NCBI GenBank assembly: GCA_023954375.1
Contig: JAMLIC010000006.1
Location: 210,972-272,689, forward strand
Source: Planctomycetota bacterium
GTDB taxonomy: Bacteria > Planctomycetota > J058
Reading direction: 5' to 3'
DNA: 61,718 nt
Of this stretch, positions 814 to 61,276 are shown piece by piece. The notes beneath the pieces are model-generated. The model was not told the DNA's origin and ran no database searches. It worked only from the letters and a program-made list of their open reading frames with translations. Numbering within the stretch: position 1 is the first letter of the stretch; each line of letters begins with the position of its first letter. The translations under genes and the position numbers were made by a program.

Positions 814-1081
814 CCTCGGTCCTGCGGGCCCCAGGACCGTTCCGTCTCGCGGCGCATTTCCGGTCCGGCAACCGGACCGGCTGCTGGTCGTCGAGGCTGC
901 GCACCTCTACGCCACCCCGGCGGAGGCGCCGCGCCTCGCGCGCGCGCGCCCGCGCGCCAGGGCCTGACTGTCACTCTGCCGTGCCGAGCGGACTCCAGCA
1001 CCACGCCTCTGCCGCTCATGGGACGCAGAGAGCGCAGAGGAGACACAGAGTCCGCGGAGAACGGGTCCTGTTCCTGCCCCT

Positions 1082-1275
1082 CCTCTGAACTCGAGGAGAA
1101 ATCGCTGCGCGATCTCTCTCGAGCTCAGACCTGCGATGAGTGATGCGCTCGCGAGGGGGGCGCGATCGGCGCAAGGCCCGGACCATGGTGCGCGGCCCGT
1201 TCCGCGCCTCCCACACGCTGCGCTTTGGCGGGTCGAGCAACCGGCAGCGGAGAGAGGAGTTCTCAAGCTCTCTGC
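1082..1275 (+). repeat. ~195-bp intergenic repeat element, copy 1 (about 88% identical to 13308..13501)
   Basis: Direct sequence match to the second copy. Internal hairpins (gagctcgag palindrome, GAGAG/CTCTC stem). It lies 45 bp downstream of the ftsQ stop on the minus strand. Confidence 0.6.
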
Positions 1276-1319
1276 GTCCAATCAACTCGAATGAAGCCTG
1301 CTATGACAGCGACGGGCTC

Positions 1320-2330
1320 CTATCGCCCGCCCCTCGCGAGCGCGTCCCTCATCGCAGGCACGCTGCCGGCCAGCGGCGCCTTCAGGACGTAGGTCACCTC
1401 GTCCCAGCGGACGGAGACGCGCTCGACCGTCGCGAGGTCGGGGCCGCCCTCGAGGAAGCGGCGCAGGGCGGCGAGCTTGGCCGCGCCGTCGAGGCGCGGC
1501 AGGCCGGCGCGGATCGTCCGCGGCTCGGCGTCGTCGCCCGGGCCCGGCGGGCGGCCCCAGTCGACGCGCGGGCCCTGGACGAGGTGCAGGACGACCTCGC
1601 TCTCGCGGGGGTCGCGCGCGCCGTCGAGGTTCGACAGGTCGAGCGCCTTCACGTGCGGCCGGAGGGCGCCGAGCTCGCGCAGGAGCGCGTTGGCGGCCGC
1701 GAGGGCGCGGAGGCGGCCCTCGCCCGAGGCCGGGGCGCCGAGGACGGCCGGGAGGTCGTCGGGCCGCGCCGCGTAGGCCAGCGGGACGAGCGCGCCGTCG
1801 GCGGTGAGGACCTCATCTCCGCCGCGGCTGGCGATGCGCGCCACCGGCTCTCTCGCGAGGAGGGCGAAGCTCAGCCGGCCCTTCGCGTCGAGGCGCACGG
1901 CCTCGACCTCCTTCACCCAGGGGAGGCCGGCCAGGCAGGCGGCGGTGAACGGCACGAGCTGCGGGTCGAAGGCGTTGGGGCGCGGCGGGAGCGGCAGGCG
2001 CTCGAGGTCGCGGCGCGCCCGGGGCGAGAGGGCGTCGGGCAGCGGCGTGAGCTGCAGGGCGGCGCGGTCGACCTGGAAGCGCGGCCAGGCCTCGACGCGC
2101 GCGCGCGCGGCCTCGGACGCGCCCGCGACGCCGGCGCCGAGCGCGCCGAGGAGGGCGAGGCGGCGCACGTCGGGGCTGGCGGCGGCCTGCCGCGCGGCCG
2201 AGAGGGCGAGGGCGCCGCCGGCGCGGAGCGCCTGCAGCAGCAGGGCGCCGACGCCGGGGGCCGTCGGGGGCGGCGAGGCGCCGGGCTTCTGCGCCGGGGC
2301 GCGGCGCGAGGTCGCGCGGCGGGCCGTCAC
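1320..2330 (-). CDS. ftsQ: cell division protein FtsQ (POTRA domain)
   Basis: The C-terminal two-thirds of ORF 1320..2804 resembles FtsQ/DivIB. A GTG start at 2328-2330 overlaps the ddl stop as GTGA. The N-terminal part of the long ORF is a GC artefact. Confidence 0.7.
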   Translation of the reverse strand: MTARRATSRRAPAQKPGASPPPTAPGVGALLLQALRAGGALALSAARQAAASPDVRRLALLGALGAGVAGASEAARARVEAWPRFQVDRAALQLTPLPDALSPRARRDLERLPLPPRPNAFDPQLVPFTAACLAGLPWVKEVEAVRLDAKGRLSFALLAREPVARIASRGGDEVLTADGALVPLAYAARPDDLPAVLGAPASGEGRLRALAAANALLRELGALRPHVKALDLSNLDGARDPRESEVVLHLVQGPRVDWGRPPGPGDDAEPRTIRAGLPRLDGAAKLAALRRFLEGGPDLATVERVSVRWDEVTYVLKAPLAGSVPAMRDALARGGR

Positions 2331-5909: not shown

Positions 5910-7226
5910 TCAGCGCGGCGGGTCGTCCCAGCCGTCGCCCCAGTCGTCGCCCCACTCGTCCGGTGTCCGGCGCGGGGGGGGGCCGCGCCTCAGGTCGTCG
6001 GGCAGCAGCGCCTCGACCATCCGGGTGGACGGGTGGAGGGGCGCCCAGGTGACGAGCAGGCGGCGGGCGGCCTCGGCGTCGGCCTCGACGTCGCCCGAGA
6101 TGCTCCGCTCGACGCGCCGCGCGACCTCGGGGGCCGCGGCCTCGATGACGGCGTGGACCTCCGGGCTCAGCGCCGGGTCGGCGGCGCGGGCGGCGCCGAG
6201 CCAGGCGAGCGCGGCGCCGTCGTCGCCGGCGGCGAGGGCGTCGAGGCCGGCGCGGAGGCGCGCACCTGGGTCGCGTGTCGCGTCGACGTCCACCAGGAGG
6301 GCCGTCAGCGCGCGGGCGCGCATCGCGAAGGCGTGCTGGTTCATCAGGTCGGACCCGACGCGCTGGAGCGCCTCGCGCGCGCCGGTCGCGTCGCCTGCGG
6401 CGAGCCGCGCGCGGGCGAGGGCGTCGAGCGCGAGGACCTCGCGCCAGCGCCGGACCTCGTCCGACAGCGTCGGCCCGCGGTGCGGCCCGCGGGCCTGCGC
6501 GGGCAAGAAGGCCTCGAGGAGCGGGAGCCCCCAGGGCTGACCCCGCTGCAGGGCGGTCCGGCCCTTGCGGAGCTGCCGGTCGGCGGCGATCCAATCCACG
6601 TACGCTCGCGCTTCGCGGGCCAGGCGGGTGGTCGGGTCCACCTGCCGGAAGAGCGCCTCGGCCCGGTCGAGGTCGCTCCGGATGCCGACGAGGTCCGCCG
6701 CCTCGTTGTACAGGCGCTCGGCCTCGAGCTCGCGCCGGCACCGCGCCTCGAGCGCCGCGAGCGTCGGCGCGTCGAGCGCCCCGCGGTGGCTGGCGAGCGC
6801 GTCGAGGGCCTCCTGCCAGGCGCTCCGGGCGATGAGGGCCTGGACCTGCGCCTCCTCCTCACGGGCGACCGCGGCCGCGCGCGAGCGCTCCTCGGCGGCG
6901 GGTTTCCACGCGACGAAGAGCGTGGCAACGACGAGCAGCAGGAACGCGAGCAGGACGCCGACGGTGCCGAGCCACCGGGTCTGGCGCGGCGGCGTCATGG
7001 CCTCGGTCCGGCCGCACGCGCCGCAGCGCCCCCCTTCGCGCCAGCAGGCCGCGTGGTGCCGGGCGAGGCAGCCCGTACAGGCGACCCAGCCGGCGGCTTC
7101 GACGGCGACCTCGTCGTGACAGAACGGGCAGCGCACGGGCGAGGTCGCCGCGCGGACGTCGTCGCGCGGGGCGACCTCGGGCGGCGGCGCGGGTCGCGCG
7201 AGCGGCTTGTCCTTCGCCTGCTCCAC
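5910..7226 (-). CDS. zinc-ribbon membrane protein with TPR-like periplasmic region, paralog A
   Basis: CPFCHDEVAV...ACTGC...HHAACW zinc ribbon, one TM helix and an Ala/Arg-rich helical C-terminus. Likely GTG start near 7226. The upstream part of the 663-aa ORF is a GC artefact. Confidence 0.55.
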   Translation of the reverse strand: MEQAKDKPLARPAPPPEVAPRDDVRAATSPVRCPFCHDEVAVEAAGWVACTGCLARHHAACWREGGRCGACGRTEAMTPPRQTRWLGTVGVLLAFLLLVVATLFVAWKPAAEERSRAAAVAREEEAQVQALIARSAWQEALDALASHRGALDAPTLAALEARCRRELEAERLYNEAADLVGIRSDLDRAEALFRQVDPTTRLAREARAYVDWIAADRQLRKGRTALQRGQPWGLPLLEAFLPAQARGPHRGPTLSDEVRRWREVLALDALARARLAAGDATGAREALQRVGSDLMNQHAFAMRARALTALLVDVDATRDPGARLRAGLDALAAGDDGAALAWLGAARAADPALSPEVHAVIEAAAPEVARRVERSISGDVEADAEAARRLLVTWAPLHPSTRMVEALLPDDLRRGPPPRRTPDEWGDDWGDGWDDPPR

Positions 7227-7240
7227 GCGAGGAGCGTAGC

Positions 7241-8545
7241 TCAGGGCGGGAGGTCGTCCCAGGAGGGACCCCACACCGGGTCGGGCGCCGGAGGCGGCAA
7301 CCAGGCGGCCCGCATGGCGCGCCAGGCCGACACGTCCACCGGCTTCACCACGTGCGATCGGCTGACGAACACGGGAGGCGACCTCCAGGCGCGGGCGCGG
7401 GCCCCGGGGAGGGCCTGCTCGAGCGCCGCACGGACGTGCGGCTCGAGCCGCGGGTCGGCCGCCAGCGCGGCGCCGAACCACGCCAGCGCCGCGCCGTCGT
7501 CCAGGGCGGCGAGCGCCGTGAGGCCGGCCTGGAGGCGGTCCGTGGGCGCCTCCGTGGTCGCGACGTCGTCGAGCACGGCGAGCAGCGCCTGCGCGCGGGC
7601 CTGGAGGGGGCGCGCGTGGTACTCCGCCAGGAGGGCCTGGAGCGACTCGCGCGCGCCGGCGAGGTCGCCGCGGACCAGGCGCTCGCGCGCCGCTGCGTCG
7701 AGGTCGAAGGACCGGCGCCAGGCTCGCCGGCGGGCGTCGATCGACGCCCGCGCCTCGGGGCCGAGCACGTGGTCGCCCAGGCGCTCCGCTTCGTCGAGGA
7801 GATCGAAGGCGCGGCGGTCGCCCTCCTCGTAGGCGCGCTGGGCCGCGCGCACCTGGCGGTCGGCGTCGTTCCAGGCGAGGTAGGCCTGCGCCTCGGGCCA
7901 CCGGCGCGAGCGGCGGTCGATCCGGCGCAGGGTGGCCTCGATCTGATCGGGGTTCGGGTCCCCGCGACCGCCGGTCCGGTCAATGACGCTGTTGTACAGG
8001 CGCTCGGCCTCCTCCTCGCGCGCGCACTCCTCCTCGAGCGCGGTGACGGCGTCGGCGTCGGCGAGCGGCGCGACCTCGGCGAGCCTGGCCCGGGCCGCGG
8101 TCCACTGGCCCTCCTTCAGCAGCGCGCGCACGCTCGTCAGCGGGTCGGGCTCGCCGGGCCGGGCGGCCGGTGCGGGCGCGGCGACCACCCCGTCCTCGCG
8201 AGGCCGCTCGCGCCGCTGGTCGCCGGTCCACCACGTCGCCAGGAGGCCGAGGCTGGTGGCGGCCGTGACCCCGGCCAGCCGGCGCCGCGCGGCGGCGCGC
8301 CGCCCCGGCGGCGACATCACCTCGGCGCGCCCGCACGCGCCGCAGCAGCCAGCTTCGCGCCAGCACGCCGCGTGGTGTCGCGCGAGGCAGGCCACGCAGG
8401 CGACCCAGCCGGGAGCGTCGACGGCCACCTGGTCGTGGCAGAACGGGCAGCGCACCGGCGAGGTCGCCGCGCGCACGTCGTCGCGCGGAACTGCGTGCGC
8501 TGCCGGTCCGGGTCCCGGTTTGTCCGGGCAGGCGTCGTCCACGAC
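7241..8545 (-). CDS. zinc-ribbon membrane protein with TPR-like periplasmic region, paralog B
   Basis: Same architecture as paralog A. The segment PRDDVRAATSPVRCPFCHD is identical in both. Likely GTG start near 8545. Confidence 0.55.
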   Translation of the reverse strand, partial: VVDDACPDKPGPGPAAHAVPRDDVRAATSPVRCPFCHDQVAVDAPGWVACVACLARHHAACWREAGCCGACGRAEVMSPPGRRAAARRRLAGVTAATSLGLLATWWTGDQRRERPREDGVVAAPAPAARPGEPDPLTSVRALLKEGQWTAARARLAEVAPLADADAVTALEEECAREEEAERLYNSVIDRTGGRGDPNPDQIEATLRRIDRRSRRWPEAQAYLAWNDADRQVRAAQRAYEEGDRRAFDLLDEAERLGDHVLGPEARASIDARRRAWRRSFDLDAAARERLVRGDLAGARESLQALLAEYHARPLQARAQALLAVLDDVATTEAPTDRLQAGLTALAALDDGAALAWFGAALAADPRLEPHVRAALEQALPGARARAWRSPPVFVSRSHVVKPVDVSAWRAMRAAWLPPPAPDPVWGPSWDDLPP

Positions 8546-11637: not shown

Positions 11638-13290
11638 TCAGCCGCCGCGCTCGAGCCGGATGATCGCCAGCTCGAGGAGCCGCCGGTCGCCGTCGCCCCC
11701 CGCGGCCTCGAGGGCCTGGCGCAAGGCCGGCAGCGCCTCGCGCGCCCCCAGGCGGCCCAGCGCCGCCGCGGCGGCGTGGTCGCGGTCGCCCCCGGAGGTG
11801 ACCAGCGCCAGGAGCGGCTGGACGAGCGTCGTAGGCGCCCGGCCCGGCGGCCAGCGGTCGGTGGTGGCCAGCTCCCAGACGACCGCGTCCCGGAGAAGGA
11901 CGCGACCGAGGCACGCGGCGAGGCGCTCCCGCGCCCCGTCGTCGCGCGCGGCGTGCAGCGTCAGCGCCCAGAGCGCGCCGGAGATGTCCGCGGAGCGCTC
12001 CAGCGCCTCGAGCACCTCCCGCCGGGGCGGCGCCCCGGCCAGGGTCGCCGCTGCCTGGTCGGGGAGCCCGTCGTCCCTCGGGCTGGCGAGCAGGGCCAGG
12101 AGCGCCGCGACGTCCTCGGGCCCGAGCGGGGCGATCCGGCCCAGCGCCGTGAGCGCGTCGGCGCGGACATGCGCCGGGGCCCGCTCGTCGAACGCGAGCG
12201 CCCGGAGCCGGGGGAGGGCCGGCTCGCCGGCGGCGCCGACGGTGCGCAGCGCGGCGACCGCGCTCGCCTGCGCGGCGTCGTCGTCGAGGAGGTCGCGCAG
12301 GAGGTCGATCGCCGCCGGGTCGTCGAAGCCGAGGCGGCCGACCGCGTGGAGCAGGAACCTGCTCCCGCGCGCGGGCCCCTCGCGCGCCAGGGCGAGCAGG
12401 CGAGGGAGGGCGGGGCGCGCGGCGGGCCCCATGGCCACGATCGAGAGGCTGGCCGTGGTGCAGAGCGGGCCCGGAACCGCCGCGGCCGCGAGCAGCGCCT
12501 CGAGCGCCTCCGGTCCGGCCAGCGGCCCGCACGCGCCGAGCGCGCGCGCGGCCGAGACGGTCAGCCAGTCCATGCCCCCCGCGCTCGCCTGGAGGGTCCG
12601 CACCAGGGCGGGGGCCGCGCGGAGCGGGGGCTGCTGGGCGCCTTCGAGGGCCTCGAGCGCGGCGGCGCGCTCCTCCGGCGCTCCCCGCTCCACGGCCCTG
12701 GCGAGCAGGGGGACGGCGGGGGGGCCCAGGCGAATGAGCGCGTCCACGTCCTGCCTGGCCATGGCCGCCTTGAACGCGCGCTCGTCGGCGGGGGCGTCGT
12801 CGCCCCAGACCCGCGCTCCCTCCGGGAGCCGATCGAGCGCGCCCACGGGGACCCCCCGCAGCGTCCGGGCGCCCGGGTCGAGGTCCTTCAGCAGGGCGGC
12901 GTCGAGGGCCAGGACCACCCGGTCCTCGGTGAGGAGGAGGGCCCGGCCGCGCCCCTCCCCGGGGGTGGCGACGGCGAACCAGGCCCACTCGGGGTCCGAC
13001 GCCGACGGCTCGCAGCGGATCTCGTAGCCCGCCCGGCGGGCGCGCTCGGTCGCCCAGAGCACGTCGTCGTTGCGCTCGAGCGCCGCGAGGTCGCCGTGGT
13101 TCAGGCGCCCGTCGCCGTCGAGGTCGGCGAGCCGGAACCGCTCCTGGGCCTTCTCGAGCGCCCGCAAGGCCTCGAAGGCGAGGGCCTCGGCCTCCCGCGC
13201 GGCCAGGTCGGGCGCGTCGGGCGCCGGGTCCTTGCTCGGGCAGCCGAGGCACAGCAGGGCCGTGAGGAGGAGACTCCTTCGCAAGACCAT
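11638..13290 (-). CDS. HEAT-repeat lipoprotein
   Basis: MVLRRSLLLTALLCLGC lipobox signal. The remainder is Ala/Leu-rich HEAT/ARM-like repeats. GGGAGG RBS 6 nt upstream of the ATG at 13290. Confidence 0.6.
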   Translation of the reverse strand: MVLRRSLLLTALLCLGCPSKDPAPDAPDLAAREAEALAFEALRALEKAQERFRLADLDGDGRLNHGDLAALERNDDVLWATERARRAGYEIRCEPSASDPEWAWFAVATPGEGRGRALLLTEDRVVLALDAALLKDLDPGARTLRGVPVGALDRLPEGARVWGDDAPADERAFKAAMARQDVDALIRLGPPAVPLLARAVERGAPEERAAALEALEGAQQPPLRAAPALVRTLQASAGGMDWLTVSAARALGACGPLAGPEALEALLAAAAVPGPLCTTASLSIVAMGPAARPALPRLLALAREGPARGSRFLLHAVGRLGFDDPAAIDLLRDLLDDDAAQASAVAALRTVGAAGEPALPRLRALAFDERAPAHVRADALTALGRIAPLGPEDVAALLALLASPRDDGLPDQAAATLAGAPPRREVLEALERSADISGALWALTLHAARDDGARERLAACLGRVLLRDAVVWELATTDRWPPGRAPTTLVQPLLALVTSGGDRDHAAAAALGRLGAREALPALRQALEAAGGDGDRRLLELAIIRLERGG

Positions 13291-13307: not shown

Positions 13308-13501
13308 TCCTCTGAGCTCGAGGAGACATCGCTGCGCGATCTCTCTCGAGCTCAGACCTGCGATGAGTGATGCGCTCGCGAGGGGGGCGCGATCGGAGCA
13401 AGTCCCGGACTGGCGCGATCTGGCCCGTTCCGCGCCTCCCGCACGCTGCGCTTTGGCGGGTCGAGCACGAGCGGCGGAGAGAAAGGTTCTCGACTCTCTG
13501 C
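13308..13501 (+). repeat. ~195-bp intergenic repeat element, copy 2
   Basis: Matches 1082..1275. Fills the gltB-to-lipoprotein intergenic region, 32 bp after the gltB stop. Confidence 0.6.
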
Positions 13502-13532: not shown

Positions 13533-16500
13533 TCAGGCCCCGGCGGGCAGGACGACGGGCAACGGCGTCGGGGCCGCGTCCTTCGGGCAGACCCAGCGCA
13601 GGGCGGCCCGGGCGTCGGCCCAGCCCTCGAGCAGCGCCCGGGCGCGCGCGCTGCCGGTCTCGGCGGCGTAGTCCTCGAGGAGCGCGCGCAGCGCCTGCCA
13701 CCGCGCGTCGTCGACCTCGTCGGCCACGCGGGCGTCCTTGTGGAGGTGGCGCTCGAGGAGGCCGTCGGGGTCGTGGACGACGACCTCGCCGCCGGTCAGG
13801 CCCGAGCCGAGCGCGTGGCCGCAGCGGCCGAGGACGACGCCGAGGCCGCCGGTCATGTATTCGAAGGCGTACTTGCCGACCCCCTCGGCCACGAGCACGG
13901 CGCCCGAGTTGCGGACGCCGAAGCGCTGCCCGGCGCGCCCGGCGACGTAGATGACGCCGCCCGTGGCCCCGTAGGCCGCGGCGTTGCCGACGAGGTGCGC
14001 CTCGCCGGGGCGCCGGGCGGGCGGCGGCACGACCACGATCCGCGCGCCCTGGCCCATGACCTCGCCGACGGTGTCGTTGGCGTAGCCCTCGAGGCGCAGG
14101 TGCATCCCTCTCGTCGCCGCGAAGCCGAAGCCCTGGCCGGCGACCCCCTGGCAGCGGAGCGTGACCTCGCCCGCGAGGTCGCCGCGGGCGATCGCCCCGG
14201 CGATCGTGGCGCCCACCGCCTGGTCGTCGGTCGTGAGCGTGCGCTCGAGGACGGCGCGCGGGCTCGAGGCCAGGGCCGTCCGGGCGGCGGCGAGCAGCGC
14301 CTCGCCCGAGGCCGACGCGCCGCGCGGCGTCAGCTCGCCCGCGCCCGCCGCCTGCGTCGGGTCGGGGCGCAGGTCGTGCAGGAGCTCCAGCAGGTCGACG
14401 CGGTCGAGCCGCGCGTTGCCGGTGGGCGGCTGCTCGAGCAGGTCGACGCGGCCGACGAGGTCGCGCGGGTGGCGGAGGCCCAGCTCGGCCAGGAGGCGCC
14501 GCACGTGCTCGGCGACGCACGTCAGGTAGCGGATCACGCCCTCGCGCGCCTCGACGTAGCGCAGGTCGAGCTCGGAGGTCTTGAGGTCGTCGCGGTGCTT
14601 GACCATGAACCGCTGGAAGACCTTGGCCGTGTCGTTGGTCGTCAGCCCCACCGGGCAGTTGCCGGCGTTGCAGCCCCGGCAGAAGACGCAGTTCTCGGCC
14701 ACGAGCAGCGCCGTGCCGAAGGCGACCTCGTCGGCGCCGAGCGCGAGCGCCTTGACCACGTCGAGGCCGTACTTGATCCCGCCGTCGCCGACGAGGCGGA
14801 CCTGGTGGCGGACGCCGTTCTCGACCAGGTACTGGTGCGCCTCCGACAGCCCGCGCTCGAGCGGCGTGCCGGCGTGGAAGATCGAGCCGCTCGACGCGGC
14901 GCCGGTGCCGCCCGAGCAGCCGCTGACCGTGATCACGTCGGCGCCGGCCTTGGCCACGCCGACGACGATCGTGCCCAGCCCGGTGATGCTCGGCACCTTC
15001 ACGCCGATCAGGGCGCGCGGGTTCACCTCGCGCAGGTGGCGGATCAGCTGGGCGAGGTCCTCGATGCTGTAGATGTCGTGGTGCGGCGGCGGCGAGATCA
15101 GGTCGACGCCGGCGCGCGTCTTGCGGATCGCGGCGATCTCGGCCGTGACCTTGTGCGCCGGGAGGTGGCCGCCCTCGCCGGGCTTGGCGCCCTGGCCGAT
15201 CTTCACCTCGAGCTCGTCGGCGCCGGACAGGTAGGCCGCGTCGACGCCGAAGCGCCCCGAGGCGACCTGCCGCACGCGGTTGCGGTCGTCCGCCCAGGGG
15301 CCGCCGGGGTTGCGGCGCTCGTCCTCGCCGCCCTCGCCCGAGTTCGAGCGCGCGCCGAAGTGGTTGAAGGCCGCCGCGATCGCCCGGTGGGCGGTCGAGT
15401 GGAGCGCCCCGTGCGACATGGCCGCGCCGCGGAAGCAGGCGCGGACCACCTCGCCCGCGGGCGCGACCTCGTCGAGCGGGAGCGGCGCCGGCGCGGGGCG
15501 CAGGCGCAGGAGGTCGCGCAGGTAGACGGGGCCGGTGGCCTCGAGCGCGGCGACGAAGCGGTCGTAGTCGCCGCCCTCGTTGCCGTTGCGGGCGACCATC
15601 TGCAGGGCGTTGGTGACCTCCTTGCGGTAGACCGACACGTCGCGCGGCCGGGAGAGCTCGTCGCCGGTCTTCGCGCGCAGGGCGAGGTCGGCGTAGACGT
15701 CGTCGAGGGTCACGCCGCCGACGAACGACTCGGTCCCGGCGAGGAAGTAGTCGACGACGTCGGGCGAGAGGCCCACCGCCTCGAACAGCGCCGACCCGCG
15801 GTAGCCGGCGAGCGTGGGGATGCCCATCTTCGACATGATCCGCCGGAGCGTGCCCACGAGCGCGCCGACGACGCTCTCGCGCGCCTGGGCCGGCTCGGTG
15901 CGCGGCGCCTCCTCGGCGAGGTGCAGCATGGCGTAGGGGTTCACGGCCGTGGCCCCGTAGGCGATCAGCACGGCCAGGTCGTGCCCCTCCTGCACCTCGC
16001 CGGTCGACACGACGATGCTCGAGTCGCGGCGCAGCGCCCCGGCCTCGGCCGCCAGGCGCCGGTGGAGCGCGCCCACGACGAGCAGCACGGGCAGGGGCAG
16101 GCGCCCCGTGCGGGTGGCCTCGCGGTCGCTCACGACCAGGACCGCCACCTTCTCGTCGCGCACGGCCGCGAGCCCCTGCTGGCAGAGGGCGTGGATGCGG
16201 TCGGCGATCGCGCCCGCGCCGCCGCGGTCGTCGAACGTGGCGTCGAGCACGCGCGCCCGCACCTCGTCGCCGGCGAGGATCGCGGCCAGCTGGCCGTTGG
16301 TGAGCACGGGGTGGGGCAGGCGGTACTGCGGGCTGACCTGGTAGACCCCGCGGCGGTCGAGCCGCGGCGAGCGGCCGAGGAACACGGTCAGGTCCATGGC
16401 CTCGCCCTCGCGGAGCGGGTCGATCGGGGGGTTGGTGACCACGGCGACGATCTGGTCGAGGAAGCCGTAGAGCCGCGCCTGGCCCTCGGTGAACGCCGCC

Positions 16501-17948
16501 AGCGGGCGGTCGTTGCCCATGGAGTGCACGGGCTCCTTGCCGGCGCGGGCCATCTCGTGGAGCCGCTGCAGGCGCTCCCTCGTCCAGCCGAACGTGTTGA
16601 GCGCGCGGACGGGGAGCTTCTCGGCGGGCGCCTCCTCGACGAGCGGCACGAGCTCGGTGGTCGAGACGTCGCCGAACGACAGCTCGCGGTCGGCGCGCTC
16701 GAGCACCCAGCGCGTGCTGCGCTCGGGCGTGACCAGCTCGCCCGTCTGGAGGTCGGCGACGAGCATGCCGCCGGGCTCGAGCTGCCCGTCGCGCACGACC
16801 TCGGCGGGGTCGAAGGGCACCGCGCCGATCTCGCTGGCGACGACGACGCGGCCGCCCTCGAGCTCGGCCCAGCGCAGGGGGCGCAGCCCCATGCGGTCGA
16901 GCATGGCGACGAGCGTCAGGCCGTCGCTGGCGACGAGCGCCGCCGGGCCCTCCCACGCGCCGAGCGTGCCCAGCACGCGCTGGCTGGCCTCGAGGAACCG
17001 GTGCTCCTCGGGCGCGAGGGCCTCCTCGCGCCAGCTGGGCGGGACCATGCGCCGGAGCGCCTCGGCCAGGCCCCCCTTGCAGCGCGTCGTCGCCAGCAGC
17101 TCGACGGCGCGGTCGAGCTGCGCCGAGTCGCTGCCGTGGCGCATGAGGACCTTGTGCACGCCGAGGACGCGCTCGACGTCGCGCACGGCGCGCGTGTTGG
17201 CGCGGATCGTGTTGATCTCGCCGTTGTGCGCCAGGAGCCGGAAGGGCTGGGCGAGGTTCCAGTTGGAGAAGGTGTTGGTCGAGAAGCGGCGGTGGCCGAG
17301 GACGACGCGCGTCGTGAGCTCGGGGTCGCGCAGGTCGGGGTAGAAGCGCGGGAGCTGCGCCCCGGTCGCCAGCGCCTTGTAGACGACCGTGCGCGGCTGG
17401 AGCGACGGGAGCGCCAGCTGGCCGGCGAACTGGTCCTCGAGGCGGCGGCGGACGTCGAACAGCTCCTTGGCGAGCTGCGCCTCGACCCGGTGCCCGCGGC
17501 CGACGAGGACCTGCCAGATCGACGGGACGTCGGCGCGCGCGCGGGCGCCCAGGGCGTCCGGGTCGGTGGGCACGCGCCGCCAGCCCAGCGGCTGGAGCCC
17601 CTCGCGCCGGGTGAGCGCGTCGACCTCGCGCTGCAGCTCGCGGGCGTTGCGCTCGCCGTGGACGAAGAACACCGTGCCGACGACGAGCGGCTCGTCCTGC
17701 GGCAGATGGCGGCCGGGCGCGATGAACCGCTCGAAGTAGCTGCGCTCGGCGCGCAGGAGCAGCCCCGCGCCGTCGCCCGTGTCGTCGAGGCAGCCGCCGC
17801 GGTGCTCCATGCAGGCGATCGCCTGGACCGCCTGCCGGATCAGGTCGTGGCTCGGCCCCGCGCGCAGCTCCGCCAGGGCGACGACCCCGCAGCCCCCGCG
17901 CCCGGGGTGCTGGCGGATCACGTCGCGGCGGCGCTGGCGGTCGATCAT
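13533..17948 (-). CDS. gltB: glutamate synthase large subunit (GltB); no gltD in the window
   Basis: MIDRQ...CGVVA N-terminal glutaminase Cys, FMN-binding and GXGXG domains throughout the 1471 aa. The long upstream extension of ORF 13533..18566 is an artefact. Confidence 0.95.
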   Translation of the reverse strand: MIDRQRRRDVIRQHPGRGGCGVVALAELRAGPSHDLIRQAVQAIACMEHRGGCLDDTGDGAGLLLRAERSYFERFIAPGRHLPQDEPLVVGTVFFVHGERNARELQREVDALTRREGLQPLGWRRVPTDPDALGARARADVPSIWQVLVGRGHRVEAQLAKELFDVRRRLEDQFAGQLALPSLQPRTVVYKALATGAQLPRFYPDLRDPELTTRVVLGHRRFSTNTFSNWNLAQPFRLLAHNGEINTIRANTRAVRDVERVLGVHKVLMRHGSDSAQLDRAVELLATTRCKGGLAEALRRMVPPSWREEALAPEEHRFLEASQRVLGTLGAWEGPAALVASDGLTLVAMLDRMGLRPLRWAELEGGRVVVASEIGAVPFDPAEVVRDGQLEPGGMLVADLQTGELVTPERSTRWVLERADRELSFGDVSTTELVPLVEEAPAEKLPVRALNTFGWTRERLQRLHEMARAGKEPVHSMGNDRPLAAFTEGQARLYGFLDQIVAVVTNPPIDPLREGEAMDLTVFLGRSPRLDRRGVYQVSPQYRLPHPVLTNGQLAAILAGDEVRARVLDATFDDRGGAGAIADRIHALCQQGLAAVRDEKVAVLVVSDREATRTGRLPLPVLLVVGALHRRLAAEAGALRRDSSIVVSTGEVQEGHDLAVLIAYGATAVNPYAMLHLAEEAPRTEPAQARESVVGALVGTLRRIMSKMGIPTLAGYRGSALFEAVGLSPDVVDYFLAGTESFVGGVTLDDVYADLALRAKTGDELSRPRDVSVYRKEVTNALQMVARNGNEGGDYDRFVAALEATGPVYLRDLLRLRPAPAPLPLDEVAPAGEVVRACFRGAAMSHGALHSTAHRAIAAAFNHFGARSNSGEGGEDERRNPGGPWADDRNRVRQVASGRFGVDAAYLSGADELEVKIGQGAKPGEGGHLPAHKVTAEIAAIRKTRAGVDLISPPPHHDIYSIEDLAQLIRHLREVNPRALIGVKVPSITGLGTIVVGVAKAGADVITVSGCSGGTGAASSGSIFHAGTPLERGLSEAHQYLVENGVRHQVRLVGDGGIKYGLDVVKALALGADEVAFGTALLVAENCVFCRGCNAGNCPVGLTTNDTAKVFQRFMVKHRDDLKTSELDLRYVEAREGVIRYLTCVAEHVRRLLAELGLRHPRDLVGRVDLLEQPPTGNARLDRVDLLELLHDLRPDPTQAAGAGELTPRGASASGEALLAAARTALASSPRAVLERTLTTDDQAVGATIAGAIARGDLAGEVTLRCQGVAGQGFGFAATRGMHLRLEGYANDTVGEVMGQGARIVVVPPPARRPGEAHLVGNAAAYGATGGVIYVAGRAGQRFGVRNSGAVLVAEGVGKYAFEYMTGGLGVVLGRCGHALGSGLTGGEVVVHDPDGLLERHLHKDARVADEVDDARWQALRALLEDYAAETGSARARALLEGWADARAALRWVCPKDAAPTPLPVVLPAGA

Positions 17949-46628: not shown

Positions 46629-47965
46629 GCGTGACCCGCGACAACGACCCCGTCGCGTACACGCTGCGGCTCGCCGTCTGCGTGACCGCCGCGATCGCCG
46701 TGCACCTGCTGGCGGTCTTCTCCTCCAGCCAGGAGGAGGAGGCCAAGGCGGAGCAGCAGCGGATCGCCGTCGTCCTCAAGGAGACGATGACCAAGGTCAA
46801 GGAGGAGATGGAGAAGCTCCTCCAGGAGGCGCAGGCCGAGCCGCCGCCGCCCGAGCCGGAGCCCGAGCCGGAGGAGCCCGAGCCGGAGGAGCCCGAGCCG
46901 CAGCAGGCCGAGCCGCCGCCGCCCGAGCCGCCCCCGCCGGCGCCGACCGCCCCCGAGCCCATGCCCGAGGCGCCGCAGGACCTCGCGCTGGCCGACGCGG
47001 ACGTGAGCGTGCTCGAGCTCGAGCCGCCGCCGCGCCCGCGTCGGCCCGAGCCGCTGCCGCAGGTCGAGCCCGTGCTCGAGCCGCCGAAGCCGGAGCCGCC
47101 GAAGCCGGAGCCGCCGAAGCCGGAGCCGCCGAAGCCGGAGCCGCCGAAGCCGGAGCCGCCGAAGCCGGAGCCGGTCCGTCCCGAGCCGAGGCCGGAGCCG
47201 GTCCGGCAGCCGCCGCCGCCCGAGCCGGTCCGTCCCGAGCCGAGGCCCGAGCCGGTCCGTCAGCCGCCGCCGCCCGAGCCGGTCCGTCCCGAGCCGAGGC
47301 CCGAGCCGGTCCGTCAGCCGCCGCCGCCGCCCGAGCCGGTCCGTACGCCGGCGCCGCCGGTGCCGCCCGAGATCGGCTCGGAGACGGTCGCCCAGCGCGA
47401 CGCGCGCCTGCACCAGACCATGCGCGAGCTGAGCGACTTCAACGAGTTCGCCACGACGTCGCGCGACGAGGTCAAGGGCAAGATCCCGGCGATCCTCTTC
47501 ACCAACGAGGACGAGGCCGAGTGGATGGCGCTGATCGCCTACTTCGACCTCCTGCCGATCGCCTACGCCAAGAGCGACCCGAGCTACTACGTCACGATCG
47601 ACGTCGCCCGCCGGCAGATGAACCACACCCGCGACTTCGAGTTCCTGCAGCAGCGCTACGGGCGCAACGGCATGCTCGTGCGCCAGCTCGGCACCATGCC
47701 GCAGTTCGTGGCCGCCGCGCGCGCGATCATGGCGCAGTTCTCGATCGCCCCCCACGACCTCACGATCCAGTTCCTCCTGCCGCGCCCGTTCGCGGCCTAC
47801 CTGAACTGGAAGGCGCTCAAGACCTGCCACGAGCTGCGCCTCGACCCGGCGACGGTGAAGGCGTGTCGCGGGCGCCTCGTCCGCGAGGGGACGAAGTGGG
47901 TGTGGCGGGTCGACGACCTGCTGCTCGAGGACGGGCGGACAACCCGCGTGGGGAGGGGCGGATGA
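46625..47965 (+). CDS. TolA/TonB-like membrane protein: N-terminal TM, long Pro-rich periplasmic spacer, and a C-terminal ~200-aa domain unrelated to TonB_C
   Basis: TM helix LAVCVTAAIAVHLLAVF. (PPKPE)x6 and (PVRPEPRPEPVRQPPPPE)x3 repeats. C-terminal domain of unknown family. Confidence 0.6.
   Translation: MSVTRDNDPVAYTLRLAVCVTAAIAVHLLAVFSSSQEEEAKAEQQRIAVVLKETMTKVKEEMEKLLQEAQAEPPPPEPEPEPEEPEPEEPEPQQAEPPPPEPPPPAPTAPEPMPEAPQDLALADADVSVLELEPPPRPRRPEPLPQVEPVLEPPKPEPPKPEPPKPEPPKPEPPKPEPPKPEPVRPEPRPEPVRQPPPPEPVRPEPRPEPVRQPPPPEPVRPEPRPEPVRQPPPPPEPVRTPAPPVPPEIGSETVAQRDARLHQTMRELSDFNEFATTSRDEVKGKIPAILFTNEDEAEWMALIAYFDLLPIAYAKSDPSYYVTIDVARRQMNHTRDFEFLQQRYGRNGMLVRQLGTMPQFVAAARAIMAQFSIAPHDLTIQFLLPRPFAAYLNWKALKTCHELRLDPATVKACRGRLVREGTKWVWRVDDLLLEDGRTTRVGRGG
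47081..47340 (+). repeat. coding tandem repeats: six 15-bp PPKPE units then three ~54-bp units
   Basis: Direct perfect nucleotide repeats (ccgccgaagccggag x6). Confidence 0.85.
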
Positions 47966-49532: not shown

Positions 49533-50663
49533 ATGGCCAAGGCAGTCGACATCGGCACCTGCTTCATCGTGGGGGCCCGCCTCGAGCAGGGCAAGGAGGT
49601 GTTCCAGATCGAGCGGGACGCCTTCTTCTCCATGCCGCGCGAGGACTTCGCCGAGGAGATGCTCCACGACGCGGGCGCCAAGTTCGTCATCCGCGGCAAC
49701 GAGCTCTACGTCGTCGGCGAGGACGCGCTCAAGTACTGCATGATCACCGGCAAGCAGGAGTTCTACCGCCGGCCCATGCAGAAGGGCGTCCTCAACCCGG
49801 GCGAGGAGGAGGCGATCCCGCTGCTCGAGCGCCTGATCGAGGGCATCATCGGCAAGCCCGAGCACCCGGGCGAGGTGATCGCCGCCACGATCCCCGCCGC
49901 GCCGCTCGACGCCAACCTCGACGTGACCTTCCACAAGATCGTCGTCGAGCGCTTCCTGAGGAAGCTCGGCTACGACGTGCGGATCCTCAACGAGGCGCTG
50001 GCGATCATCTACGCCGAGTGCCCGCAGGTCGAGGACAACGGCACGAAGGCGCCGTTCTCGGGCGTGGGCGTCTCCTTCGGCGCCGGCATGACGAACCTCG
50101 TCGTCTCGTGGCGCGCCAAGAAGCTGTTCGAGATCTCGGTCGCGCGCGGCGGCGACTGGATCGACCAGAGCGTCTCCAAGGTGCGCAACGTCCCCGTGGG
50201 GAAGGTGACGCACGAGAAGGAGAAGAACCTCGACCTGCGCCGCGTCGACCCGCGCAACGCCCTGCACCTGGGCCTCGAGATCTACTACGACGAGCTGATC
50301 CGGCACGTCCTGCGCGAGTTCCGGGCGCACTTCAAGACGAACCAGACGACGGTCACGAGCCCGCTCGACGTGGTCGTCGCCGGCGGGACCTCGTCGGTGC
50401 CCGGGTTCATCGACCTGTTCAAGCGCATCCTCGAGGAGGAGGGCGCGCCGATCCCGGTCAACGACGTGCGCATGGCCAAGGACCCGCTGCGCACGGTCGC
50501 CAAGGGCGCGCTGGTCGCCGCGGTCTCCATGGAGAAGAAGAAGAAGTCGGACAAGCCGGGCGCGCCGGCGGCGCCGCCGGCCCAGGCGGCGCAGGCCGCG
50601 CCGGCGCCGGCCGCGCCGCCGACGCCCAGCGCGGACGTGATCGACATCGAGGCCGGGGTCTAG
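49533..50663 (+). CDS. actin-like ATPase (ASKHA superfamily; MreB/ParM/actin-type)
   Basis: Phosphate-1 AVDIGTCFIV, phosphate-2 GVSFGAGMTNLVV, adenosine VVAGGTSSVPGF, connect-2 DPLRTVAKGAL. Ala/Pro-rich C-terminal tail. Confidence 0.7.
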   Translation: MAKAVDIGTCFIVGARLEQGKEVFQIERDAFFSMPREDFAEEMLHDAGAKFVIRGNELYVVGEDALKYCMITGKQEFYRRPMQKGVLNPGEEEAIPLLERLIEGIIGKPEHPGEVIAATIPAAPLDANLDVTFHKIVVERFLRKLGYDVRILNEALAIIYAECPQVEDNGTKAPFSGVGVSFGAGMTNLVVSWRAKKLFEISVARGGDWIDQSVSKVRNVPVGKVTHEKEKNLDLRRVDPRNALHLGLEIYYDELIRHVLREFRAHFKTNQTTVTSPLDVVVAGGTSSVPGFIDLFKRILEEEGAPIPVNDVRMAKDPLRTVAKGALVAAVSMEKKKKSDKPGAPAAPPAQAAQAAPAPAAPPTPSADVIDIEAGV

Positions 50664-50694
50664 GCCTCCCAGGGCGCGGGGCGGAAGGGGCTGC

Positions 50695-52755
50695 ATGAGC
50701 GCGAACGGCGTGGAGCGCGAGGACGGCGGGCTCGAGGTCATCATCGAGCCCGACGTCGTCCCCCGCGGGACCGTCGACCTGCGGGCGATCATCGGCGGCG
50801 CGCGGGCGGACGGCCGCCCGCGCGAGACGCACACGGCGCGCGGCCGGCGCGAGGCGGTCCTCGCGCAGGTCGCGGCCGCGCACGTCGCGCCGCCGCCGGC
50901 GCTCGTCGCCGCCGCGCCCGTCGTCGCCGCCGCCGTCGCGCCGGCCGTCGCCGCCGAGCCGGAGCCGGAGCCGGCCGAGCCGGAGCCGGCCGAGCCGGCC
51001 CCCGAGGAGGGCCTCCTGGCCGAGGCCCTCCCCGACCTCCCGCCCGAGCCCGCGTCGCCGACGCTCATGGCCCTCGAGGCGGCCGCCAAGGCGCCGATCC
51101 CGCCGCGCCCGGACGCGGCCCTGGCGGCCGACGCCCCCGACCCCCACCCGGAGCCCGAGGCGCCGCCGGTCAGCCTGGGCGAGGTCTCGGCGTTCAGCAC
51201 GCTCGCCAAGCTCCTGGCGCAGCTCCTGGCCCTGCTCCTGTGCCTGATCGCCCTCTACCTGCACCTCATGGGCCTGGCGCCCTGGCAGGAGCAGCGCGGG
51301 GCGGAGCCCGCCGCGATGGCCCCGGCCGCGCCGAGCGGCGAGGCCCCGCGGGTCGACACGGTCCCCGTCACGCCGCCGCCGGCGGCCGAGCCCGAGCCGT
51401 CGCCCGAGCCGGCGCCCGAGCCCGAGCCGGCGCCTCCCGCCGACCCCGCGCCGGAGCCCGAGGTCGAGGCGGCCGCGCCGCCGGCGCCCTCGGCGCCCTC
51501 GCTCGAGGACCTGCGCGCGCTCCTGGCCGAGGCCGAGACCGGCGCCGAGCTGGGCGTCGAGGAGGACGCGCCCGGGCTCCTCGCGCGGATCGAGGGCCTG
51601 CGGGCCCGGGCGGCGCGGCTGATCGACAGGGGCGAGCTCGACGAGGCGGCCGAGGTCCTGCGCGAGCTGATCGGCCTGGCCCCGGAGGACGGCGACGCCT
51701 ACTTCCGCCTGGGCTACGTCCACCACCGCAAGGGCGACCTGGACGAGGCGGCCGCCCGCTACCGCGGCGCCGCCGAGCGCTCGCCGCGCGACCCGCGGCC
51801 CCTGAACAACCTGGGCCTCATCCAGACCGGGCGCGGCGAGCGCGACGCCGCGAAGGCGACCTACGCCAGGGCGCTCGACCTCGCGCCCGACGACCCGGAC
51901 GTGCTGTCGAACCTCGCCGCCCTGCTCGAGGCCAACGCGCCGACCCAGGCCCATCCGCTCTACGAGAAGGCGCTCGAGCGCGACCCGCGCCACGCGCCCG
52001 CCCGCCTGGGCCGCGCCCGCGTGCGCGCCGCGGTCGGCGACCGCCAGGGCGCCCGCGCCGACTACCAGGCGCTGGTCGACCAGGGCGGCCCGCACGCGCA
52101 CCGCGCGCTCGACGGCCTGGGCGTCCTGGCCCGGATCGAGGGCGATGCGCGCGCCGCCGCCGCCCTCCACCGCCAGGCGCTCGAGCGCACGCCCGCCTTC
52201 GCCGAGGCGCGCGTGAACCTCGGGGTCGCGCTCCTCGACCTCGGGCGCGACGACGAGGCCCGCAAGGAGCTCGACGATGCGGTCAAGGCGCTGCCGAGGA
52301 GCCCGCGCGCGTGGCAGGCGCTGGGCGTGGCGCGCTCGCGCCTGGGCATGCTCTACGAGGCCAAGGAGGCCTACGAGGCGGCGATCAAGCTCGACGGCGA
52401 CGACTGGGCCACCCGCTTCGACTACGCGCTCTGCGCCGAGCAGTTCGGCAACATCCTCTTCGCCATGCGCGAGTACGAGCGCTCGATCGCGCTCAACCCG
52501 ACCGCCTGGCAGCCCTACGCCAACCTCGCTCGCCTCTACGTGCGCGGCGACCAGCGGCAGAAGGCGATCGAGCTCCTCACGCGCGGGCTCGAGGTGATGC
52601 CCCGTCAGCCCGACCTGACCTACGCGCTGGCGCACGCGCTGGCGCTCGAGGGGCGCGACGCCGAGGCGCGCGCCCGGCTGCGCCAGTTCCTGGCCGTGGC
52701 GCCGGCGAGCGACCCGCGGGTCGAGGTCGTGCGGCGCGGGCTGGGCGGGTCGTGA
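50695..52755 (+). CDS. TM protein with a Pro/Ala/Glu-rich linker and multiple C-terminal TPR repeats
   Basis: TM helix LLAQLLALLLCLIALYLHLMGL. At least six TPR-like units in the C-terminal half. Confidence 0.6.
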   Translation: MSANGVEREDGGLEVIIEPDVVPRGTVDLRAIIGGARADGRPRETHTARGRREAVLAQVAAAHVAPPPALVAAAPVVAAAVAPAVAAEPEPEPAEPEPAEPAPEEGLLAEALPDLPPEPASPTLMALEAAAKAPIPPRPDAALAADAPDPHPEPEAPPVSLGEVSAFSTLAKLLAQLLALLLCLIALYLHLMGLAPWQEQRGAEPAAMAPAAPSGEAPRVDTVPVTPPPAAEPEPSPEPAPEPEPAPPADPAPEPEVEAAAPPAPSAPSLEDLRALLAEAETGAELGVEEDAPGLLARIEGLRARAARLIDRGELDEAAEVLRELIGLAPEDGDAYFRLGYVHHRKGDLDEAAARYRGAAERSPRDPRPLNNLGLIQTGRGERDAAKATYARALDLAPDDPDVLSNLAALLEANAPTQAHPLYEKALERDPRHAPARLGRARVRAAVGDRQGARADYQALVDQGGPHAHRALDGLGVLARIEGDARAAAALHRQALERTPAFAEARVNLGVALLDLGRDDEARKELDDAVKALPRSPRAWQALGVARSRLGMLYEAKEAYEAAIKLDGDDWATRFDYALCAEQFGNILFAMREYERSIALNPTAWQPYANLARLYVRGDQRQKAIELLTRGLEVMPRQPDLTYALAHALALEGRDAEARARLRQFLAVAPASDPRVEVVRRGLGGS

Positions 52756-59763: not shown

Positions 59764-60064
59764 TCGCGCCTACGACGAACGATGCCGGGCGGCGCCGTCC
59801 GTCGTAGCGCCGCGCGGGGCGGGGCGCGACGACCGCTCGGGCTCCCTCGGCGGCCAGGAGGCCGCCATCGGTCGCCTGGTGTGATCGCGCCTGCGACGAA
59901 CGATGCCGGGCGCTGCCGTTCGTCGGGGCCGACTGCGTCGGCCCCGACCGCTCAGGCTCTCTCGGCGGCCAGGAGGCCGCCTTCGGTCGCCTTCGCGCGG
60001 CATCGCCTCGGCCTCGTTCGTCTCGGCTGAGGCTCTGGCTGCGTCTCGCGCCGTGTGGTGTGCT
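59716..60064 (+). repeat. tandem array (one partial plus two full copies) of a ~120-bp hairpin-bearing repeat unit; the distal part of the last copy forms the left arm of an inverted repeat
   Basis: Units begin tgatcgcgcct(a/g)cgacgaacgatgccgg at 59716, 59760 and 59881. Each contains the cgacgaacg...cgttcgtcg stem. Confidence 0.7.
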
Positions 60065-60194: not shown

Positions 60195-61276
60195 TCAGTA
60201 CGGGCCGTGGGGCTCGTCGTCGTCGAGGTCCTCGTCGCCGACGTCCTGCTCGTCGTCCTCGCGGTCTTCGACGTCCTCGCCGAGGTCCGCGTCGTCGCCG
60301 ATCTCCTCGTCGGCGGCGCCCTCGTCGCCGATGTCGCGGGCGTCGACGTCGGGGCGCTCGTCGGGGGGCGTGACCTGCTGGAGCGCGTAGGCGTAGTGCG
60401 TGGTCACGCGCTTGCCGCGGCCGTCCTCGCGGACGATGCGGGTGCCGGTGGCCTCGAGCCAGGTCAGGCGGCCGGCATCGTCGATCGCGAAGGCGTACTC
60501 GGGGGCCGGGGTGTCGCCGGTGACGTCGAAGGTCATCCGGAACTCGGCGCCGGCGTCGCCGCGGCCGACGTAGCGGACCTTGCCGGTGGGGAGGGCGCCG
60601 GTCGCGGGGACCCGGGCCTCGAAGCCGTCCTCGATGGCGTCGCCGGCGCGCAGCCGCTCCATGACCACGCGCACGGGCGCGCTCCCCTCGTTGTTGCTGC
60701 GCACGAGCCAGGCCTCGAGGCGCTGGCTCCAGCGCTCGACCATCCACGGCCCGAACCGCCGCAGGAACCAGCGGCGCGCCGGGCGGTCGCCGGCCATGTC
60801 GCGGGCGACCCGCGCGTAGAGCTGCTTGATCGTGCGCTCCTGCCCGGTCACCGCGAGCAGGCGCCACGTCGGGTCGAACTCGTAGGTCCAGGTGCGGGCG
60901 AACTCCAGCTCGCGCTGGCCGATGCGGATCGTCTGCAGGTCGTCGTCGTCGTAGGTGATGCGCGTCTCGACGTTCGGCGCGACGGCGTGCATGCGCCAGC
61001 CCGTGAGCGTCGAGCGCAGGGCGAACCCCTGCGGCCGGTCGAGCACCTCGGCCGACTCGGTCCACACGATCGTCGTCGTCTCCTCCTCGCCCTCGCGCCC
61101 GAGCGGCGCCTCGACGGTGCGCATCTCCGTGCGCGCCCGCCAGGTCTCGCCCGGCTGGAAGCGCTCGTCGATGCGGAAGGCGTCGCCCTCCTGCGCCGCG
61201 GCCCCACCGGCGCAGCAGAGCGCCAGGGTCGCGACGGAGAGGCGGGCGCGCGCGGTGATCCAACGTGAAGACATGG
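60195..61276 (-). CDS. secreted protein with a highly acidic C-terminal tail
   Basis: ATG with a GGAGAGG RBS. Signal peptide LSVATLALCCAGGAAAQE. C-terminal DEGAADEEIGDDADLGEDVEDREDDEQDVGDEDLDDDE. Confidence 0.55.

Follow-up and report, generated by a model that had tools for sequence, protein, structure and literature searches.

The window studied here, a 61,718-nt stretch of an uncultured Planctomycetota bacterium (assembly GCA_023954375.1, contig JAMLIC010000006.1) with a G+C content of 75.6%, carries two closely similar intergenic elements, copy A and copy B, which lie just past the 3′ ends of an ftsQ-like gene and of gltB, respectively. In our assessment, these copies are very probably non-autonomous, non-coding insertions of a mobile repeat, and not RNA genes. 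The element is an interspersed repeat of the kind represented by miniature inverted-repeat transposable elements (MITEs), repetitive extragenic palindromes (REPs), BOX elements and mycobacterial interspersed repetitive units (MIRUs), and works like a bacterial MITE. Copy B is a recent insertion, which marks it as ordinary selfish DNA and not a dedicated regulatory RNA gene.

Each composite element is 181–182 bp long and is built from a 5′ hairpin (A module), a palindromic core of ~109 nt that forms the common part of the family, and a 3′ hairpin (C module). In window coordinates, the two composites are laid out as follows:

1083–1087, plus strand: left direct repeat CTCTG of copy A; the same pentamer occurs again at 1270–1274.
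1088–1128, plus strand: 5′ hairpin (A module) of copy A, AACTCGAGGAGA..TCTCTCGAGCTCAGA; a hairpin in the folds, with 95% identity to the A module of copy B and a single A·C mismatch at 1089.
1129–1237, plus strand: palindromic core of copy A; covariance model R1, 97 bits, E = 2.5e-22, full length.
1238–1269, plus strand: 3′ hairpin (C module) of copy A, ending ..TTCTCAAGCT; from the alignment with copy B and with the repeat-bearing loci L002, L001 and L015.
1270–1274, plus strand: right direct repeat CTCTG of copy A, read from the sequence.
13310–13314, plus strand: left direct repeat CTCTG of copy B; from the alignment of filled and empty sites, single in the empty sites.
13315–13355, plus strand: 5′ hairpin (A module) of copy B; from the fold, with a 12-bp perfect inverted repeat (13311–13322 / 13345–13356).
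13356–13465, plus strand: palindromic core of copy B; covariance model R1, 110 bits, E = 1.5e-25.
13466–13495, plus strand: 3′ hairpin (C module) of copy B, from the alignments.
13496–13500, plus strand: right direct repeat CTCTG of copy B, from the alignment of filled and empty sites.

Global alignment of positions 1088–1269 with 13315–13495 gives 165 identical columns out of 185 (89%), and identity by module is 95% in the 5′ hairpin, 92% in the core and 72% in the 3′ hairpin. Both copies lie on the plus strand and thus share one orientation. With up to 3 mismatches allowed, the window contains a 26-nt core motif three times, where 100 shuffles predict 0.00 occurrences, and nhmmer E-values are 6e-74 for copy A and 1.5e-71 for copy B; the similarity of the two copies is not due to chance. 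Nor is their conservation explained by any open reading frame (ORF), as every reading frame is broken by indels between them. The end of copy A lies 45 nt from the stop codon of the ftsQ-like gene (1320–1322, minus strand) and that of copy B 31 nt from the gltB stop codon (13533–13535, minus strand), and both copies are antisense to the genes that they follow. The gene names are backed by domains and relatives: the gltB ortholog contains GATase_2, Glu_syn_central, Glu_synthase and GXGXG, and among the relatives of the ftsQ-like protein, one matches PF03799 (FtsQ/DivIB) and another is named FtsQ by JGI. The original prediction, made from the window sequence, of two ~195-bp stretches that are ~88% identical, similarly oriented, 30–45 bp past the ftsQ and gltB stops and free of an explanatory ORF thus stands, with the stretches placed correctly to within a few bases.

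The history of copy B can be read from related genomes that lack it. The genes around its site are:

13533–17948, minus strand: gltB, with its 5′ coordinate inferred from a 1471-aa ortholog.
11638–13290, minus strand: HEAT-repeat lipoprotein gene, from domain and ortholog comparison.

The spacer between these genes measures 242 bp in the window versus 54–55 bp in three related contigs, one from Planctomycetota bacterium ACE_PLA31 (GCA_019636275.1; L023) and two from Logan (L024 and L025), whose HEAT-repeat lipoprotein orthologs are 94% and 87% identical to that of the window, respectively. Filled and empty sites align collinearly on both sides, with 91–97% identity in the flanking DNA, and the window has exactly 186 additional bases between ..GTCCTCTG and CATGAGG.. 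(plus strand), i.e. positions 13315–13500 or, equivalently, 13310–13495. The pentamer CTCTG borders copy B on both sides and occurs only once in each of the three empty sites. Copy B sits 20 nt upstream of the ATG of the HEAT gene, leaving its GGAGG ribosome-binding site untouched. Judged from these alignments, the lineages of the window genome and of its ~95%-identical relative had already separated when the composite entered the gltB–HEAT spacer, which it did in one piece. Copies A and B differ from each other by 11%, and the genomes by 3–7%; given that the copies have diverged more than the genomes, they stem from different source copies and not from each other.

The left end of the element, GAGCTCGAG(G)A, has a near-complement at the right end, and these short, imperfect terminal inverted repeats lie inside the CTCTG flanks. 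As the same pentamer flanks both insertions, two readings of the insertion event remain. Insertion at a preferred target may have duplicated a few bases of it, namely 5 bp (CTCTG) or, with the inverted repeats counted as the element ends, 3 bp (TCT). By analogy with IS200/IS605, it may instead have taken place 3′ of a fixed target, without duplication.

Beyond the window, the element belongs to a sizeable family. A motif scan of one genome per species with the 24-nt pattern GCGATGAGNGANGCGCTCGCGAGG (22 specified bases) returned 27 matches, 26 of which lie on 20 contigs of ACE_PLA31, a genome that is 93–97% identical to the window across ~12 kb of orthologous DNA; the 27th, in an alphaproteobacterial coding region, is a chance match. 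With nhmmer and the covariance model, 59 units were recovered at E < 1e-3 in the window and the ACE_PLA31 loci, spread over 21 contigs plus the window and over both strands, many of them truncated at one end. What they share is the core, (A)CCTGCGATGAGTGATGCGCTCGCGAGGGG... CCCCATCGCTCGC..GGCGGGTCGAG, with a unit length that varies between 100 and 110 nt. The 5′ hairpin module was seen in only three copies (the two window copies and L002) and the 3′ hairpin module in six, so that the full three-module form is found in just 3 copies in the data examined. Neither of these two modules is present anywhere apart from the core, which itself also occurs solo, in both orientations relative to neighbouring genes, and in arrays. 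These results bear out the REP/MITE-like family reading that had also been offered for the two stretches: the core is dispersed and multi-copy, the empty sites are exact, fragments and deleted copies exist and both orientations are used. The proposed search for more copies, combined with covariance modelling, thereby yielded at least 59 units, including a third one in the window.

The distribution of the family is restricted. Plasmid and phage collections contained no match, and neither did a metagenome scan with a 23-mer spanning the junction of A module and core. Scanning the metagenomes with a core 21-mer gave a single fragment of the core, which is truncated and adjoins an assembly gap (L031); a match of the 21-mer GAGTGATGCGCTCGCGAGGGG at L032 1931–1951 (Ga0213849_1192713) falls in an apparent 23S rRNA gene of an unrelated organism and was treated as chance. 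No description of such a family in Planctomycetes was found in the literature searched. By these searches, the repeat is confined to one narrow lineage of Planctomycetota, which is uncultured and has a G+C content of 75%. At some loci, the surroundings of the element ends are themselves repetitive: at L015 737–760 (minus strand), the TCTCTG end past a unit's 3′ hairpin module has grown to a (TC)8 microsatellite, and at L001 and window 1018–1050 several CAGAG/GCAGAG motifs adjoin the element ends. Such sequences may be footprints left at the insertion target, or hotspots of it.

Near ftsQ, the repeat has left a more complex arrangement. A covariance model built from the family, calibrated and run over the whole window with filters off, detects exactly three copies, with all else at noise level, and the description of a two-copy element therefore has to be revised. 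The features at this locus are:

1292–1359, minus strand: third copy, an inverted, internally deleted core; covariance model, 25 bits, E = 5e-4.
1320–2330, minus strand: ftsQ-like gene, its 3′ end remodelled by the element.
1018–1033, plus strand: inverted duplicate of the right end of copy A and its flank (ATGGGACGCAGAGAGC vs GCTCTCTGCGTCCAAT); a 16-nt inverted repeat, 94% complementary.

In the third copy, ~14 nt stand where the core has its 54-nt apical part. The 26-nt core motif matches it on the minus strand at 1330–1355, and together with copy A it forms a 43-nt inverted repeat (1130–1172 / 1316–1358) that is 86% complementary. The last 12 codons of the ftsQ-like gene (PAMRDALARGGR) and its TAG stop are encoded by this third copy; the tail PAMRDALARGGR is missing from five orthologous FtsQ proteins, whose C-termini diverge from that point. 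DNA homology with five related contigs spans murC/murB, ddl and ftsQ and ends at window 1374–1384, ~18 codons short of the ftsQ stop. Relatives with 83% FtsQ identity (L026/L027) have a trypsin-like protease gene after ftsQ, of which tblastn found no trace in the window. Past the breakpoint, the window continues with the inverted mini copy, composite copy A, the inverted duplicate at 1018–1033, which is probably, by its sequence, a remnant of another element end, and a convergent Abhydrolase_9 gene; the CAGAG motif recurs across 1018–1050. The end of homology, the element-encoded tail and the absent protease gene tie the element to a rearrangement at ftsQ. These comparisons indicate that the element rewrote the end of a cell-division gene and that its copies there mark a synteny breakpoint.

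The two stretches had initially been proposed as a possible small RNA or 3′-untranslated-region element, a reading that the searches for an RNA gene do not uphold. Neither the window nor any of four repeat-rich loci has an Rfam 15 match that reaches the gathering score, and at E < 10 (window 1000–1400 and L015 300–2800) the element matched noise only, the best being sX5 at 13.8 bits; the proposed Rfam/cmscan check for a known RNA therefore came out negative. Neither copy has a sigma-70-like promoter on either strand (other promoter types were outside the scan), and no intrinsic terminator (i.e. a hairpin followed by a U tract) was found around either copy on either strand. The copies are moreover antisense to the preceding genes, and the position of copy B is not conserved, being empty in the three related contigs that share the operon. 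One Rfam match deserved a closer look. At L015 586–2480 (JAHBXY010000141.1), a Ro60/TROVE+vWA (rsr-like) gene is flanked by repeat units, and just downstream of it lies a weak match to YrlA, a Y RNA-like family (L015 586–717, minus strand, 24 bits, E = 0.033). This match falls between two repeat units, with a third unit upstream of the rsr-like gene; as the match lies between the units, which are multi-copy, a Y RNA identity for the element is ruled out and the location is a coincidence.

The core itself is a single long imperfect hairpin with paired 5′ and 3′ ends, comprising a main stem of ~14 bp and outer stems, and its covariance model holds 27 base pairs. In the 59-unit alignment, 92.3% of cells have standard pairs, versus 39–51% when the partners are slid by 1–3 columns. 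Two neighbouring main-stem pairs swap, C-G/G-C in a ratio of 38:17 and G-C/C-G of 33:18. The compensatory-looking changes noted at the outset cannot be demonstrated from two copies, and become demonstrable only across the wider family. These swaps separate two subfamilies, so they possibly reflect only one or two events. On the top strand, the 35-unit alignment has 90 cells with G·T wobbles versus 14 with A·C mismatches, and four of five units tested fold 4–9 kcal/mol better as the top strand than as its complement. Selection acts on the core structure, probably on one strand; RNA, single-stranded DNA and co-evolving inverted repeats all fit this pattern. Folding z-scores against dinucleotide shuffles are unremarkable (−0.4 to −2.7), as any sequence this GC-rich folds well. 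A coding role for an ATG inside the core is ruled out by the variable unit lengths and the frame-shifting indels.

Most units in ACE_PLA31 are organised differently from the window copies, namely in head-to-tail arrays of 2–7 units. Their periods differ by place (82, 104 or 140 nt) and identity within an array is 96–98%, which together argue for local amplification and not for serial insertion. Many arrays also start at the end of a gene: of 29 arrays or solo units, at least 11 adjoin a long ORF of the same orientation (GC3 of 0.92 or above) whose end falls between −5 and +12 nt from the first base of the element. By Pfam, several of these ORFs are intact to their last residues, including those for ProC, RF3, a histidine phosphatase, a PDZ protein and a HEAT protein. 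By the position of the stop codon, these loci are:

L005, L006, L010, L013, L014, L015 (5385–5595), L016, L017, L018, L020 and L021: stop-abutting arrays or units with a co-oriented upstream gene.
L014, L020 and L021: the stop is a TGA whose A is base 1 of the element.
L006 and L013: the stop is the element's own TGA at +8.
L010: the stop is the element's own TGA at +12.
L016 and L018: the stop is a variant TGA at +5.

The 5′ end of the element (ACCTGCGATGAGTGA) has TGA in two frames within its first 15 nt, and a third TGA is often present at the junction. It therefore closes two upstream frames by itself, and the third only if a junction TGA forms; for each of the three frames, there are upstream genes that terminate in the element. 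By its sequence, the ftsQ-like gene of the window is an exception, as it entered the open frame and runs for 12 codons to a mutated TAG. Around the stop-adjacent unit at L021, spacers could not be compared for a second empty site, because the closest homolog of the PEP-utilising enzyme there is too distant, at 63% identity.

Several of these observations weigh against an origin of the window copies as insertions of a mobile repeat. An empty site was recovered for copy B only and none for copy A, and L002, the sole composite beyond the window copies, lacks a clear target duplication. The terminal inverted repeats are only ~9–11 bp long, with a gap or mismatch in both copies. No transposase was found among 40 ORFs scanned with Pfam, 39 beside repeats in ACE_PLA31 loci and one in the window, nor among the genes up to 10 kb away from the orthologous window region. 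Lastly, the compensatory swaps and the top-strand excess of G·T over A·C are also expected of a functional RNA, and the non-random placement of arrays at stop codons is not predicted by purely selfish spread.

One alternative is a cis-acting RNA element that spread for its usefulness, e.g. as a 3′-untranslated or intercistronic stabiliser, a terminator or a structure met by the terminating ribosome, with the window copies being functional. The 92% pairing and the two swapped pairs, the top-strand bias in wobbles and folding, and the arrays that abut the stops of co-oriented, Pfam-confirmed genes would all agree with such a role, for which there is a precedent: E. coli REPs located within 15 nt of a stop codon reportedly stall ribosomes and lower translation (Liang et al. 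2015, cited in PMC12306157). The window copies fit this explanation poorly, being antisense and 31–45 nt from the stops, and solo copies elsewhere point in both directions. It is weakened further by the lack of a U-tract terminator, promoter or Rfam match in the searches above, the weak z-scores, the division of the compensatory changes between two subfamilies, by which they may reflect one or two events, and the absence of copy B from close relatives with the same operon. We consider it distinctly unlikely for the window copies.

A related idea concerns the core only, which could be a strand-specific module that targets, or is retained at, the 3′ ends of genes. This would amount to either a new form of stop-proximal targeting or a lineage-wide tuning of termination, and we regard it as unlikely, if somewhat less so than the functional-RNA explanation. 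Targeting could be the work of an enzyme such as a single-strand HUH transposase whose target resembles TGA. Tuning, on the other hand, would involve a hairpin that starts at the terminating ribosome and affects termination, ribosome rescue or the stability of the mRNA 3′ end, in the setting of a 75%-GC genome without U-tract terminators.

Mobilisation as a REP or REPIN by a REP-associated tyrosine transposase (RAYT; a Y1 HUH enzyme), in which copy A and the inverted mini copy would represent a REPIN-like doublet, has some features on its side: the units are extragenic palindromes that accumulate at the 3′ ends of genes, positions 1130–1172 and 1316–1358 form an inverted pair, the G·T bias on the top strand is as predicted by single-strand recognition, core-only units lack an obvious target duplication, and the same pentamer lies beside both composites, as with insertion 3′ of a fixed target. 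REPs are, however, 20–40 bp long with stems of 5–13 bp, carry a GTAG or CGTC tag and typically form head-to-head dimers (PMC3733652). The unit here is ~109 nt, three to five times longer; neither end carries such a tag, the conserved 5′ segment being (A)CCTGCGATGAGTGATGCGCTC; and its clusters are head-to-tail. There was no Y1 transposase among the 40 scanned ORFs, and no RAYT near any sampled copy. By its length, missing tag, head-to-tail clusters and the lack of a RAYT near the sampled copies, the element is not a REP in the strict sense, and we view this explanation as highly improbable. The likeness to REPs, bacterial interspersed mosaic elements and REPINs is confined to extragenic palindromes just past stops, clustering, the inverted pair at ftsQ and the strand-specific G·T excess.

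A non-mobile origin of the copies, whether by segmental duplication, by gene conversion or through decay of a gene or RNA gene, is barely credible. The plus strand of the core does have an ATG-initiated frame (MSDALARG...) resembling the present FtsQ tail, but that resemblance runs in the reverse direction, as FtsQ orthologs lack the tail. In addition, 59 or more units lie on 21 contigs beside unrelated genes, the insertion has exact boundaries with a flanking direct repeat, and the frames are broken by indels.

The preferred reading of the copies as mobile-repeat insertions finds its closest parallel in MITEs such as Correia/NEMIS, RUP and Nezha. Like these, the element is small (under ~600 bp) and non-coding, folds into a long hairpin, is bordered by a short direct repeat that is single in the empty site, and is dispersed in multiple copies, present or absent between close relatives (with a flanking duplication and an empty site for copy B), inserted in either orientation and able to alter gene ends. 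It differs in that its terminal inverted repeats are only 9–11 bp and imperfect, the core also occurs solo and in tandem, and the same pentamer flanks both insertions, which implies either target specificity or the lack of a true duplication. Moreover, the 40 ORFs, the 18 kb of orthologous DNA and the window yielded no parent or autonomous partner insertion sequence whose ends match.

Other known repeats resemble the element in part. BOX elements of Streptococcus pneumoniae are intergenic, have strong secondary structure and are built from the modules boxA-boxB(n)-boxC. Two different end modules around a middle module of variable copy number are found here as well; there is no sequence similarity, the phylum is another one, and the middle module here also occurs without ends and in arrays of up to 7. 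MIRUs are tandem, intergenic units of 40–100+ bp in high-GC genomes, whose ends overlap the stop or start codons of their neighbours, so that insertion does less damage (PMC12548453). They have also been described as linking an internal small ORF with the start codon that lies downstream. The arrays of ACE_PLA31 (periods 82–140 nt) likewise begin on or at most 12 nt from the upstream stop, unlike the window copies, which are solo composites 31–45 nt from stops. Another difference is that no frame is conserved in the element and that its link is to the upstream stop. Rickettsia palindromic elements (RPEs) are palindromic repeats able to join protein-coding genes, inserting in frame inside them. 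The element here similarly supplies the C-terminus of FtsQ; unlike RPEs, it replaces or abuts the extreme 3′ end of genes, with TGA in two of its three frames. RPEs have been listed among the CGTC-type repeats (PMC3733652).

As a non-autonomous element, the repeat would be mobilised in trans by a transposase encoded elsewhere. The 40 scanned ORFs are ordinary chromosomal genes, with no Y1 transposase/RAYT, TnpA or TnpB among them; since the loci were picked for containing the repeat, a repeat-flanked transposase or RAYT should be among them, although the sample is incomplete. The 18 kb of DNA orthologous to the window also contains no transposase, Rfam gave no IS605-orfB/HEARO match, and the element end motif has no further pairs or close matches in the window, which thus holds no parent insertion sequence. 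One candidate enzyme would be a cut-and-paste DDE transposase that duplicates a short CTCTG or TCT target; another would be a single-strand HUH enzyme (IS200/IS605/RAYT-like) inserting 3′ of a CAGAG-type target. Compared with IS200/IS605-derived palindrome-associated transposable elements (PATEs), which have subterminal hairpins at both ends, insert 3′ of a fixed 4–5-nt target without duplicating it and have a TnpA/TnpB partner, the element has hairpins at both ends, the same pentamer beside both copies, which would fit a fixed target, and the G·T bias on the top strand, but no such partner was found. After insertion, the window copies would be essentially neutral passengers, and any effect at the RNA level, such as a stable hairpin in the gltB–HEAT intercistronic transcript, would be a by-product.

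In annotation, the two stretches should not be listed as candidate small RNAs; the appropriate treatment is masking, as for any interspersed repeat. In this lineage, the repeats also account for breaks in contigs, for a synteny breakpoint and for the changed C-terminus of FtsQ. Being found in one genome and missing from another that is ~95% identical, copy B provides a dated case of repeat movement among uncultured Planctomycetota, and the family is an example of a palindromic element with stop codons of its own. Should targeting or a function be shown for the stop-abutting arrays, the REP-near-stop and MIRU phenomena would reach as far as a distant phylum.

The window contains further repeats of other kinds. 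At 59693–59990, three ~68-nt copies containing TGATCGCGCCT(A/G)CGACGAACGATGCCGG form a different local repeat, accompanied by two copies of a ~50-nt sequence, GACCGCTC.GGCTC.CTCGGCGGCCAGGAGGCCGCC; this repeat is absent from all other loci examined. Upstream of the murC/murB fusion gene, at 6125–8517, two adjacent stretches that are 72–82% identical and spaced 1277–1319 bp apart resemble paralogous genes in tandem. Low-complexity coding repeats occur at 46828–47384, 50561–51496 and 60198–60363, with proline/glutamate-rich periodicities of 15–27 nt and an acidic periodicity of 9 nt.

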